This document shows positions 31,496-34,609 of a stretch of DNA of 64,000 nt, one piece after another. The position numbers and the translations under genes are program-made. The notes under the pieces are model-generated. The model did not search any database, was not told where the DNA came from, and saw nothing but the letters and a program-made list of their open reading frames with translations. Source of the DNA: Ignavibacteriales bacterium (lineage in GTDB: Bacteria > Bacillota > Clostridia > Acetivibrionales > UBA4821); contig JBLNBO010000046.1 in the NCBI GenBank assembly GCA_050260055.1, forward strand, positions 1,962-65,961, given 5' to 3'. How positions within the stretch are numbered: position 1 is the stretch's first letter; each line of letters opens with the position of its first letter.

Positions 31496-31530
31496 CATAA
31501 AAAAGCTGCTGATATTTTGTCAGCAGCCAA
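31496..31530 (-). terminator. Rho-independent terminator of the arsR-hgcAB-acr3 operon
   Basis: Minus strand reads GGCTGCTGA caaaata TCAGCAGC followed by TTTTTT. Confidence 0.8.
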
Positions 31531-31568
31531 GATTAATCTAAAACAACTATACGCTATAAATCTATAAT

Positions 31569-32657
31569 TTAAGCTCTTTCTTTAATGTTATGCTTTGGCA
31601 AGCCATTTTCATCAAAATATTTGCGTTTAAAGAACAAGGCTGAGTTTACTAATCCAATCATTACAGGAACTTCAACCAAGGGACCTATAACTGCAGTAAA
31701 TGCAACATCGGATGCTATACCGAACACAGCTACAGCAACTGCAATAGCTAACTCAAAATTGTTGCTTGCTGCTGTAAAAGCAAGAGTAACAGTTTGGTCA
31801 TATCTAAAGCCGCCTTTGAAGGACATATAAAAACTTACAAAAAACATAATTGCAAAATAGATTAAGAGCGGTATTGCAATTCTAATTACATTACCCGGAT
31901 ATCTAACAATCTGCTCACCCTTAGTAATAAACATGATTATAATTGTGTATAGTAATGCCACCAATGCTACTGGAGAAATCTTCGGAATAAATACTTTCTC
32001 GTACCATTCTTTTGTTTTAACCCTTATTAACCCAAATCTTGTAATAAAACCTGCTGCAAAAGGAATCCCCAAGTAAATAAGTACGCTCTTTGCAACTTCC
32101 AGCATTGAGACATTTACAATCTGGCCTCCCCAAGAAAGTCCCAGCCATTTAGGAAGAAGAGTTACAAATACATAAATATAAACAGTATATAAAAGAATCT
32201 GGAAGATAGAATTAAGTGCTACTAAAGCAGCACAGTATTCATTATCTCCTTTCGCCAGAGTATTCCAAACAATAACCATCGCAATACAGCGTGCTAAACC
32301 AATTATAATAAGACCGATTGCGAAGTTCGGCTTATCGCCAAGCAGTAATATTGCTAATACAAACATCAAAATCGGGCCTATTATCCAGTTTTGCACAAGG
32401 GAAAAAGAAAACACCTTCTTATTTTTAAATACTTTTCCGATTTCTTCATACTTTACCTTAGCCAGCGGCGGATACATCATTATTATAAGGCCTATAGCTA
32501 TCGGCCAAGATATTGTCCCTGTACTGAAGTTACTTAATGACTTTGCCACATCAGGAAAAAAATATCCTCCTACAACACCAATAGCCATTGCAATAAATAT
32601 CCATAATGTTAAATACCTATCCAAAAAAGATAATTTTGCTTTTTGTTCAATATCCAT
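31569..32657 (-). CDS. acr3: Arsenite efflux permease of the ACR3 family
   Basis: 362 aa. [33 protein letters not shown], about 10 TM helices. Confidence 0.9.
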
Positions 32658-32678
32658 AGAATCCCTCCAAAATATATT

Positions 32679-32981
32679 TTAGCAACAACCGCTGCCATCA
32701 TTGCCGCCTGAACAATCGCAGCTAGGCTCTGTTCCAGTCAGCCATCCTTTAATTATTGCAGCTGCGCAGCCAACTCCAGGATTTACTTCTATTGCATTGA
32801 ATGGGCAGTTCTTTGCGCAAGCTCCACATTCCATACAACTGTTCTTATCAACAATTCGAGCCTTGCCGTCTTTCAAATCAAATACTTTATGCGGGCAGAC
32901 TTCAGTACACCTTCCACATCCGGTACATTTCTCTGATTTAAATTTCAACGCAGCAACATCTTTTAAGTATTTATGCTTCAT
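32679..32981 (-). CDS. hgcB: Mercury methylation ferredoxin HgcB (2x[4Fe-4S], extra Cys and C-terminal CC)
   Basis: 100 aa. CTGCGRCTEVCP and CMECGACAKNCP, GVGCAAAIIKGW, tail CDCSGGNDGSGCC. It starts 11 nt after the hgcA stop. Confidence 0.9.
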   Translation of the reverse strand: MKHKYLKDVAALKFKSEKCTGCGRCTEVCPHKVFDLKDGKARIVDKNSCMECGACAKNCPFNAIEVNPGVGCAAAIIKGWLTGTEPSCDCSGGNDGSGCC

Positions 32982-32992
32982 AATCTTCCTCC

Positions 32993-34180
32993 TTAAAACC
33001 GGATAAGGCTATTAGCCAATATCAAAATCGCGCCTAAACCTATCGATATAATAATAGCAGGAATAGCTATTTTCATCTCCTTTAATACACCGGAAAATGA
33101 TGTATAAGTTGAACAACCTGTAAAGTTCATTGCACAAAATGCAGATACTGATGGCAAAACCAGCAAATATCCTACAGCTCTTATCCAGTTATACGAGGAT
33201 ACTCCAGGCCATCCATTAAGTATGTTTAGACTTATAGCCCAGAACAAACCTAATAGCCATCCCTTCCATGCAAAAGCCCTGCCAGGAATCCAAGGCAGCA
33301 GTACGGGAGTTACTACACATCCCACTACCAATGCACCTATATATCCATAAAAATCAATTAAACCAAAAGGTTTAATTGATATAAGATTCAATAAAAACAG
33401 TATACCAAAAATCATTAGAGATATTTTAAAAGTACTTACCAATTCTATTGGCGTTAAAACAAGCCTATCGTATGTTGTAAAATTAACTGTACGCATTTTT
33501 TCAGTTGCTTTCATTCCCAAACTGATAAATTCTTTTAGATCCTTTGCCCTGACTGGTCCATAAACTACTTTAAATCCAGAATGTTTTGTAACTTCATGAG
33601 CACTTACGCCTGGTGCTCCTAACTGTGGCAATATCAAAGTCCTGTGTGTCACAACCTTTGAAAGCTCTGTTTTATTTATGCGATTTACAATTTCCTTTGT
33701 ACCAAATGTACCTTTTCCGGCAGCACACCAAACATTAATACCTTTCGTATCAAGTACGAGTATCCACGCATCAATGCCTGCTAATTCCTTTCTCAATGAG
33801 TCAAAGGTTAATTTGTAATTTGCAGTAACCAGTACAGGTGAAGTGTCTTTCGGTGCACCCACAGCATAAAGCCCAGGATTTATTTTATAGTTCATCCTAT
33901 TTATTCCCCAGCGGGCTTTCCAGGCACCAATGGTATCACTAAAATTTAATTTAGTTGAAACCTGTGGTAATGAACCAACAGCCGTCTCAACTTTGCCAAC
34001 TTCCCATTCTTCCTTTTTAACATATTGTGTCTCGGATTCTGAAGAACAGGTTCCTCCACAGCAGCAGGAATTTTCTTTAGGCAAATCTTTTTTATCAACC
34101 TTACTAACTCTAGGTTTAACCCTTACTACTTTAGCTTTTAATTTCTCACTATCCGAATCACAGCATTTATTGTTTTCCAA
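32993..34180 (-). CDS. hgcA: Mercury methylation corrinoid protein HgcA (CFeSP-like corrinoid domain plus 5 TM helices)
   Basis: Diagnostic cap-helix motif GINVWCAAGKGTFG (NVWCAAGK at nt 33713-33736), followed by a C-terminal domain with five hydrophobic helices. The N-terminal extension is Cys-rich. Confidence 0.92.
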   Translation of the reverse strand: MENNKCCDSDSEKLKAKVVRVKPRVSKVDKKDLPKENSCCCGGTCSSESETQYVKKEEWEVGKVETAVGSLPQVSTKLNFSDTIGAWKARWGINRMNYKINPGLYAVGAPKDTSPVLVTANYKLTFDSLRKELAGIDAWILVLDTKGINVWCAAGKGTFGTKEIVNRINKTELSKVVTHRTLILPQLGAPGVSAHEVTKHSGFKVVYGPVRAKDLKEFISLGMKATEKMRTVNFTTYDRLVLTPIELVSTFKISLMIFGILFLLNLISIKPFGLIDFYGYIGALVVGCVVTPVLLPWIPGRAFAWKGWLLGLFWAISLNILNGWPGVSSYNWIRAVGYLLVLPSVSAFCAMNFTGCSTYTSFSGVLKEMKIAIPAIIISIGLGAILILANSLIRF

Positions 34181-34222
34181 GGTTCCACCCCCAATTAAAT
34201 TACAAGCATTTCTAACTATGAG

Positions 34223-34543
34223 TTAACATTCGCATTTTAAATTTTCTTTATTTTCACACTTATTAGTGTCCGTAACTAAACTCATAAGAAATAATATAAG
34301 CTTATTGCAATTAGTATTATTCAGCGAATAGAAGCTCCAGAGTCCTGCCTTCCTGCATTCTACTAGGCCGCACTCCATTAATACCTTCATGTGATGCGAT
34401 AGTGTTGGCTGCGTAAAATCAAATTCTTCAAGTATATGGCATGCACATCTTTCTCCACAAGACAACATATCGATTATCTTAAGTCTGTTCGAATCTGCAA
34501 GTGCTTTCATAATTTTTTCATTATCATCGTAGTTTAGGTCCAT
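34223..34543 (-). CDS. arsR: ArsR/SmtB family metalloregulator
   Basis: LADSNRLKIIDMLSCGERCACHILEEF..TQPTLSHHMKVL winged HTH, plus C-terminal Cys residues (KCENKENLKCEC). Confidence 0.9.
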   Translation of the reverse strand: MDLNYDDNEKIMKALADSNRLKIIDMLSCGERCACHILEEFDFTQPTLSHHMKVLMECGLVECRKAGLWSFYSLNNTNCNKLILFLMSLVTDTNKCENKENLKCEC

Positions 34544-34558
34544 ATAATCACTCCTTAC

Positions 34559-34609
34559 ATAGATAAGTATCTATATGTATAATATATATAGTTATCTATG
34601 TTATGTCAA
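34559..34609 (-). promoter_or_regulatory. Promoter of the arsR-hgcAB-acr3 operon with two ATAGATA-type dyads (candidate ArsR operators)
   Basis: Minus strand reads TTGACA (34604-34609), 17 nt, TATATT (34581-34586). One dyad, ATAGTTATCTAT (34588-34599), lies in the spacer. A 7-2-7 palindrome, ATAGATA AG TATCTAT (34559-34574), lies between the -10 and the Shine-Dalgarno. Confidence 0.55.

Follow-up and report, generated by a model that had tools for sequence, protein, structure and literature searches.

Why should the mercury-methylation genes hgcA and hgcB lie inside what looks like an arsenic-resistance operon, and does the arrangement tell us how they are controlled? The native function and the regulation of HgcAB are long-standing questions, and hgcA abundance is a poor guide to how much methylmercury is produced in nature. 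We analysed a 64,000-nucleotide stretch of a metagenome-assembled genome (MAG) from an uncultured clostridial lineage (hereafter the window; assembly GCA_050260055.1, contig JBLNBO010000046.1, positions 1,962 to 65,961), in which hgcA and hgcB stand between a gene for an ArsR-type repressor and one for an Acr3-type arsenite pump. The association of hgcAB with arsR, acr3 or arsC is already published (2020, 2023 and 2025), and the window locus is a further clean example of it. McDaniel et al. (2020) described hgcAB flanked by acr3, arsC, arsM and arsR in metagenome-assembled genomes (PMC7438021, Fig. 6), Gionfriddo et al. reported that hgcAB sits with ars genes in some methylators (10.1101/2022.10.17.512643, later AEM 2023), Zhang et al. 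(2023) reported the association again (PMC10349881), and Peterson et al. (2025) found, in a eutrophic lake, lower hgcA/gyrB transcript ratios for hgcA genes with arsR in front of them, with acr3 or arsC in those neighbourhoods (PMC11984097, Fig. 4c). An arsenic hypothesis for HgcAB has likewise appeared in this literature. From the published MAG neighbourhoods (PMC7438021, PMC10349881, PMC11984097) the locus does not differ in kind; it is the same phenomenon. What it adds is an unusually clean case built from a canonical ars regulator, operator and pump, an operator motif that is conserved over many arsR-hgcA promoters, and a view of acr3 linkage as evolutionarily labile, with two Acr3 clades repeatedly recruited. 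For comparison, we surveyed the 80 nearest hgcA loci (one genome per species) together with the window and three relatives; the denominators given for this survey are the assessable loci.

All four open reading frames (ORFs) are on the minus strand, arranged head to tail in the order arsR-hgcA-hgcB-acr3, and direct reading of the sequence gives gaps of 42, 11 and 21 nt between them. The first-pass annotation, made from the letters and an ORF list, had proposed this layout with one shared promoter at 34581-34609 and one terminator, and gene order, coordinates, gaps and both ends of the unit were all borne out. The predicted promoter (34581..34609, minus strand) is of sigma-70 type, with a -35 box TTGACA at 34609-34604, a 17-nt spacer and a -10 box TATATT at 34586-34581. 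It matches 11 of the 12 consensus positions, was the top-scoring site of the region in a consensus scan, and both boxes are kept in the relatives L081 and L083; the case for it is one of site quality and conservation, because the regional total of promoter-like matches is not above chance. An intrinsic terminator closes the operon (31496..31528, minus strand; hairpin 31528-31504 plus U-run). It has a 9-bp GC-rich stem, a loop and a U-run, and folds with -13.8 kcal/mol (z = -3.2). Upstream, the terminator of a permease gene (34743..34776, minus strand; -16.1 kcal/mol, z = -5.0) would shield the arsR promoter from read-through and set the 5' boundary of the unit. With terminators at 34776-34743 and 31528-31504, the unit is therefore bracketed on both sides.

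Within the unit, folding of the internal gaps revealed no significant terminator or hairpin (arsR-hgcA, z = +0.2; hgcB-acr3, z = -0.7). Attenuation between arsR and hgcA was rejected, since the spacer is without significant structure. Also rejected was transcription starting or ending between hgcB and acr3, where the one promoter match is at chance level. By sequence anatomy, the minimal set of an ars operon, arsR plus an arsenite pump gene, is present between one promoter and one terminator, and arsR-hgcA-hgcB-acr3 forms one apparent transcription unit. The identical gene order with similarly short gaps was found in other genomes, and arsR overlaps hgcA by 20 nt in L081 and by 11 nt in L083. 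We detected no Rfam family or tRNA inside the four-gene cassette, and in the window no arsP, no arsE and no second copy of arsR, hgcA, hgcB or acr3. A compositional island was rejected as well (GC 0.34-0.38 for the cassette versus ~0.35 for the window). The proteins of all four genes are already in NCBI as ArsR/SmtB, HgcA, HgcB and ACR3 of a MAG (MGE5474676-79).

The regulator gene (arsR, 34223..34543, minus strand) encodes an ArsR/SmtB-family repressor of 106 aa, which scored 92.1 bits against NF033788 (cutoff 55) and contains the winged-helix HTH_5 domain (PF01022, 57.1 bits). It shares 66% identity with the ArsR of the Clostridium tyrobutyricum plasmid operon arsR-arsD-arsA-acr3-arsC (L085) and, over its full length, 50% with the ArsR of Listeria innocua pLI100 (L086), which AMRFinder labels As(III)-sensing. 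Among its nine cysteines, Cys29, Cys33 and Cys35 lie in the alpha3 motif LSCGERCAC, and Cys96, Cys104 and Cys106 lie at the C-terminus. Cys33 and Cys35, the alpha3 CxC pair, are invariant in our alignment of the plasmid ArsR and hgcA-linked ArsR proteins (A2), and Cys29 (LSCGExCAC) together with the C-terminal CxC tail is common to the ArsR subgroup, including plasmid ArsR of real ars operons.

Two putative ArsR operator sites overlie the promoter region. Site A (ACATAGATAACTATATATAT; 34582..34601, minus strand; dyad 10/12) lies within the spacer and overlaps the -10 box, and site B (ATATAGATACTTATCTATGT; 34557..34576, minus strand; dyad 11/12) lies between the -10 box and the ribosome-binding site AAGGAG (34556-34551). 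The two sites are the arms of a 20-nt inverted repeat and are 90% complementary. Both plasmid promoters match the layout of the window, with TTGACA, a dyad over spacer and -10, and then a near-perfect palindrome before the ribosome-binding site: L085 and L086 have equivalents of site A, and palindromes near-identical to site B are ATATAGATAGCTATCTATAT in L085 and ATATAGATGAACATCTATAT in L086. We scored the dyad as ATATnGA-N6-TCnATAT matched at 10 or more of 12 positions, with composition-matched shuffles as control. Of the 27 upstream regions of hgcA-linked arsR genes, 25 contained the dyad, and 20 had two sites at conserved positions (versus 0.8 +/- 0.9 regions in the shuffled controls); the real rate is ~190x that elsewhere in the loci. 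No description of a two-dyad operator shared with classical ars promoters was found in the searchable literature. The dyads that had been noted at 34559-34599 thus resolve into 34557-34576 and 34582-34601, and the earlier label of an As(III)-type repressor is supported by the 66% and 50% homology to ars regulators and by the shared operator layout. By this homology the window ArsR appears to be of the ordinary Firmicute arsenic-repressor type.

At the other end of the operon, acr3 (31569..32657, minus strand, 362 aa) encodes a protein of the ACR3 family of arsenite efflux permeases (436.7 bits against TIGR00832, cutoff 282.8). Cys124 in RCIAMV and Glu302 in NNFELA are both present, the conserved residues reported as essential in characterised Acr3 proteins, and the protein is predicted to be an ACR3 arsenite efflux permease. 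It falls into the 90%-identity cluster of Desulfosporosinus orientis Acr3 and shares 88% identity with the pump encoded in a D. orientis-type plain arsR-acr3-arsC operon without hgcAB (L087). The ArsR encoded beside this most similar acr3 is just ~40% identical to the window ArsR. The operon of the window thus combines standard ars parts as a mosaic, and a single ancestral arsR-acr3 operon into which hgcAB was simply inserted is not supported. The Acr3 proteins of the surveyed hgc loci split into two deep clades, with just 30-37% identity between them, and members of both are found directly after hgcB. At L025, HgcA is closest to those of L012 and L017, yet Acr3 belongs to the other clade. Since the Acr3 clades are incongruent with HgcA similarity, the pump has been recruited or replaced more than once. 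The hgc-linked Acr3 proteins resemble plain-operon Acr3 as much as one another and are therefore not a specialised subtype.

Between regulator and pump, hgcA (32993..34180, minus strand) encodes a predicted corrinoid methyltransferase of 395 aa with the corrinoid-binding domain PF03599 and begins with a TTG start behind GGGGGTGG. The protein reached 510.6 bits against the NCBIfam equivalog model NF040863 (cutoff 275), covering model positions 2-324 of 325. The scores against the HgcAB-like fusion model (206.5 bits, cutoff 285) and the CFeSP gamma model (83 bits, cutoff 306) both stayed under the models' own cutoffs, and the paralog identity that had been named as the possible misreading of this gene was rejected in favour of a true HgcA. 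The cap-helix stretch GINVWCAAGKGTFG spans residues 147-160, with NVWCAAGK at residues 149-156, and this motif is invariant in our HgcA alignment (A1); the codon of Cys152 is tgt at 33727-33725. Kyte-Doolittle hydropathy alone places about five hydrophobic helices in residues 240-395 (~240-264, 272-300, 302-327, 331-358 and 360-395). The motif N(V/I)WCA(A/G)GK with its cysteine codon at 33725-33727 had been called to the nucleotide, and the C-terminal five-helix membrane domain, also called before, agrees with the hydropathy. A sequence search of solved structures found no HgcA structure; nearest were CFeSP large subunits (PDB 4djd and 2h9a; E ~1e-10). Compared to AcsC, the CFeSP large subunit of the acetyl-CoA pathway, HgcA has a homologous corrinoid-binding domain (PF03599) but carries Cys152 where CFeSP has Thr, and it additionally has the C-terminal membrane domain and the partner HgcB.

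This partner gene begins 11 nt downstream of hgcA. hgcB (32679..32981, minus strand, 100 aa) encodes a 2x[4Fe-4S] ferredoxin with 138.1 bits against NF040864 (cutoff 99). As described in the first-pass annotation, the protein has two CX2CX2CX3CP motifs (CTGCGRCTEVCP at residue 19 and CMECGACAKNCP at residue 49), an extra cysteine, Cys72, within GVGCAAAI, and a C-terminal CC (residues 99-100). HgcA itself carries a Cys-rich N-terminal tail ahead of the model-covered region (residues 1-70, 34180-33970; CC at 6-7, CCC at 39-41, and C45), which may be a metal-binding tail. A CC/CCC motif is present in 31 of the 47 HgcA N-termini examined. The tail was rejected as a marker of ars linkage, with CC in 16 of 22 arsR-linked versus 15 of 25 unlinked HgcA proteins.

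We consider it likely that the locus is a classical Firmicute-type ars operon (arsR...acr3) that carries hgcAB as internal cargo and is derepressed by As(III). The anatomy, the gene identities, the homology of the ars parts and the recurrence of the arrangement are observed, and from them we infer co-transcription, repression by ArsR and As(III) as the effector. In the proposed mechanism, an ArsR dimer would bind the two 20-bp dyads over the -10 box and the transcription start region (34557-34601) and thereby shut off the one promoter. Binding of As(III), and probably of Sb(III), to Cys33 and Cys35 plus either Cys29 or the C-terminal cysteines would then release ArsR; the operon is probably switched on by As(III) in this way. 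One mRNA, arsR-hgcA-hgcB-acr3, would be made and would end at the terminator 31528-31504. Acr3 would export arsenite, and made together with it would be HgcA, the methyl-carrying corrinoid protein whose predicted cobalt ligand is Cys152, and HgcB, its putative ferredoxin electron donor. With hgcAB on an As(III)-derepressed mRNA, the capacity for Hg(II) methylation would therefore be arsenite-induced and not constitutive. Such loci predict that in some Firmicutes Hg methylation capacity is turned on by arsenite via an ordinary ArsR; if true, arsenite-induced Hg methylation would be relevant at sites contaminated with As and Hg and would offer a simple experimental handle.

Known systems help to place this proposal. 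Compared with the classical Firmicute ars operons, the window is alike in ArsR (66% and 50%) and in the promoter layout of TTGACA plus two dyads (L085, L086), and alike in Acr3 (88%) with ArsR at ~40% for the Desulfosporosinus-type arsR-acr3-arsC operon (L087); it differs from all three in having hgcA-hgcB between regulator and pump, and it has no arsC, arsD or arsA. An ArsR/SmtB gene directly upstream of hgcAB also occurs in the arsR2-hgcA-hgcB loci of Pseudodesulfovibrio mercurii ND132 and P. hydrargyri BerOc1, where the genes are co-transcribed (Goni-Urriza 2020; Gionfriddo 2022/2023). In ND132, hgcAB is under the control of ArsR2, which responds to As and also to S-adenosylhomocysteine (SAH), and knocking out hgcAB makes the strain more sensitive to As(V) (10.1101/2022.10.17.512643). 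ArsR2 there belongs to an atypical clade with four cysteines (Cys47/49/86/88), whereas the window ArsR is of the ordinary Firmicute type with what appears to be a classical operator, and no other ars gene stands beside hgcAB there, whereas the window operon closes with acr3. By analogy, the ND132 experiments point the same way as the As(III)-derepression model, although they concern another ArsR clade.

Several points weigh against an arsenite-derepressed ars operon. arsC is commonly part of ars operons, and neither this operon nor the rest of the window contains it. Promoter-like matches across the region number 14, with 15.2 expected by chance. Of the R773-type triad C32-x-C34-x-x-C37, the window ArsR has the CxC, with Leu in the place of the third cysteine. 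Sequence is no reliable guide to the effector of an ArsR/SmtB protein. Finally, of the four closest relatives, two (L081 and L084) retain no more than a decayed stub of acr3, and selection for the hgcAB-acr3 linkage is therefore weak in this lineage.

The survey bears on how far the arrangement extends. An ArsR homolog stands directly upstream of hgcA in 25 of 79 loci, and in 19 of 79 a MarR-family gene does so instead. These upstream MarR proteins have conserved cysteines (L007, L024, L033, L036, L037, L041, L044, L045, L052 and others), and MarR upstream of hgcA has been mentioned for two isolates (PMC10349881); it looks like an alternative regulator to ArsR. acr3 follows hgcB directly in nine of 75 loci. 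Seventy loci have sufficient flanking sequence on either side; in 19 of them an ars structural gene (acr3, arsC, arsP or arsE) lies no more than 3.5 kb away, and 51 are without one within that distance. Where ars genes are present, their order varies: arsR-hgcAB-acr3-arsC was found at six loci (L046, L029, L012, L015, L017 and L031), arsR-acr3-arsC-hgcAB in Desulfitobacterium sp. THU1 (L010), arsR-arsC-hgcAB in Desulfosporosinus sp. BG (L023) and arsR-hgcAB-arsC at L005. The gap between hgcB and acr3 is ~19-47 nt in every locus in which the two genes stand in that order.

Closer to the window, we used its GlmS (41040-42857) to find relatives (87-94% identity) on contigs with shared flanks, that is NDK, CheR, RuvA and the glmS ribozyme with glmS on one side, and then ABC/FtsX. 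What stands between these flanks varies. L090 (GlmS 87%) has no ars or hgc genes there, L089 (GlmS 92%) has a large ars island without hgcAB (marR, arsP, three arsR, Trx/DsbD, arsE, arsD and arsA), and L083 (GlmS 94%, HgcA 78%) has glmS, arsR-hgcA-hgcB-acr3 (Acr3 93%) and marR-arsE-arsP. In L081/L082 (HgcA 80%), arsR-hgcA-hgcB is followed by the ribosome-binding site of acr3, its start codon and ~30 codons, and then by a frameshift and a stop (L081 8485-8600). L084 (HgcA 77%) retains a 3' remnant of arsR (5917-6030), intact hgcAB, a 46-codon 5' remnant of acr3 (7637-7774) and an HMA-domain gene. On these comparisons, the four-gene cassette is ancestral to the small clade, with acr3 lost twice, and the stretch from ruvA/glmS to ABC/FtsX (window ~25000-41000) is a variable metal(loid)-resistance island in the close relatives. 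No description of acr3 decay in the sister genomes was found in the searchable literature. The coupling of hgcAB to arsenite efflux had been called hard-wired at first; this was overstated, given the decayed acr3 of L081 and L084 and the majority of surveyed hgcAB loci without a nearby ars gene.

Two further features of these contigs were noted. L081 carries at 5928-6078 a full-length glmS ribozyme (90.7 bits) without glmS, and the next gene, 556 nt downstream, is the arsR of arsR-hgcAB; this orphan ribozyme reflects either a glmS deletion or an assembly join. Fluoride riboswitches are present in the variable regions of two relatives (L083 11298-11359; L090 11878-11939), and none was found in the window.

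The variability of this site is what gives weight to the strongest rival explanation, namely that the hgcAB-ars linkage is without functional meaning: both would travel in a variable resistance island, and co-expression with acr3 would be a neutral by-product. The site is empty in L090, holds an ars island without hgcAB in L089 and the cassette with marR-arsE-arsP in L083; acr3 has decayed twice; and in the wider survey most loci (51 of 70) have no ars structural gene within 3.5 kb, and MarR replaces ArsR in 19 of 79. However, four distinct hgcAB-ars architectures recur, with two unrelated Acr3 clades and in several phyla, and hgcAB lies inside the operon, between regulator and pump, and not alongside it. 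The higher As(V) sensitivity of the ND132 hgcAB knockout and the induction of hgcAB by As (10.1101/2022.10.17.512643) also speak against mere hitchhiking, which we regard as a possible but distinctly less probable account.

A second rival accepts the operon and replaces its signal. ArsR might respond to another effector, for example Hg(II), Cd(II) or S-adenosylhomocysteine, in a general soft-metal or methyl-cycle response in which acr3 would be a passenger. The nine cysteines of ArsR, its Cys-rich C-terminal tail and the lack of an equivalent of R773 Cys37 would fit such an effector, as would the SAH response of ND132 ArsR2 (10.1101/2022.10.17.512643). Among solved structures, those nearest to ArsR are the Cd/Zn sensors CadC and CzrA, and no close As(III)-ArsR structure was found. 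But the closest annotated ArsR homologs (66% and 50%) head bona fide ars operons with the shared operator layout, the invariant CxC pair is sufficient for the As(III) response in R773 ArsR (10.1101/2022.10.17.512643), and the pump under control is an arsenite pump. We therefore judge a non-arsenite effector unlikely.

A more far-reaching reading concerns the enzyme itself. HgcAB might be a corrinoid-dependent, ArsM-independent metalloid methyltransferase with arsenite or another soft metalloid as its native substrate, which would work with Acr3, and Hg methylation would then be a side reaction. We hold this to be improbable, and we nevertheless keep it in view because hgcAB lies inside a seemingly canonical As(III)-regulated operon, has been joined to ars genes more than once and independently (two Acr3 clades, several gene orders), encodes Cys-rich tails in HgcA and HgcB, and in ND132 gives an As(V)-sensitive knockout. 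The last rival, in which acr3 would be transcribed alone from a promoter at the hgcB end and the operon would be arsR-hgcAB, can point to a weak promoter-like match just upstream of acr3 (ATGGCA-16-TATATT, 9/12, 32698-32671) but is very improbable, since matches of this grade occur at chance rate (14 versus 15.2 expected), the -10 box ends 13 nt before the ATG so that the transcript would be without the GGAGGG ribosome-binding site, nothing that folds as a terminator or stable hairpin comes after hgcB (z = -0.7), and just ~19-47 nt separate hgcB from acr3 wherever the two genes stand in this order. That leaves the arsenite-derepressed ars operon with hgcAB as cargo as the reading that we favour.

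Which organism carries this operon is clearer than its database labels suggest. At NCBI the source MAG carries the label Ignavibacteriales bacterium, and the sister contig L083 (GCA_050258375.1), with a GlmS 94% identical to that of the window, is labelled Deltaproteobacteria bacterium. However, every named relative of GlmS belongs to the Clostridia (71% identity in Petroclostridium, 68% in C. thermosuccinogenes), a glmS ribozyme lies upstream of glmS (42933-43083, minus strand), and the close relatives of HgcA, ArsR and Acr3 are all Bacillota; both labels therefore look wrong. The host had been placed in the Firmicutes from the letters alone, and the relatives of GlmS and of the cassette proteins lead to the same assignment.

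Outside the cassette, a RACo/AcsV-type reductive corrinoid activase (52520-54130, minus strand) adjoins a 5-formyl-THF cyclo-ligase gene and a DUF2085 gene. The activase was rejected as an hgc accessory, as it is also conserved in relatives without hgcAB. Near the cassette, metal- or stress-type genes encode a heavy-metal P-type ATPase (38567-40486, plus strand) and a DUF1259 protein (37460-38425, minus strand). A MerR/NmlR-like regulator (29787-30173, minus strand) is also encoded close by, as is an aldo/keto reductase whose C-terminal domain is of 2x[4Fe-4S] type (30262-31377, minus strand). Finally, the gene at 34957-37281 (minus strand) encodes an APC-family amino-acid permease (residues 1-410) fused to ~350 residues of Ig-like 'Ca_tandemer' repeats, an unusual transporter architecture.

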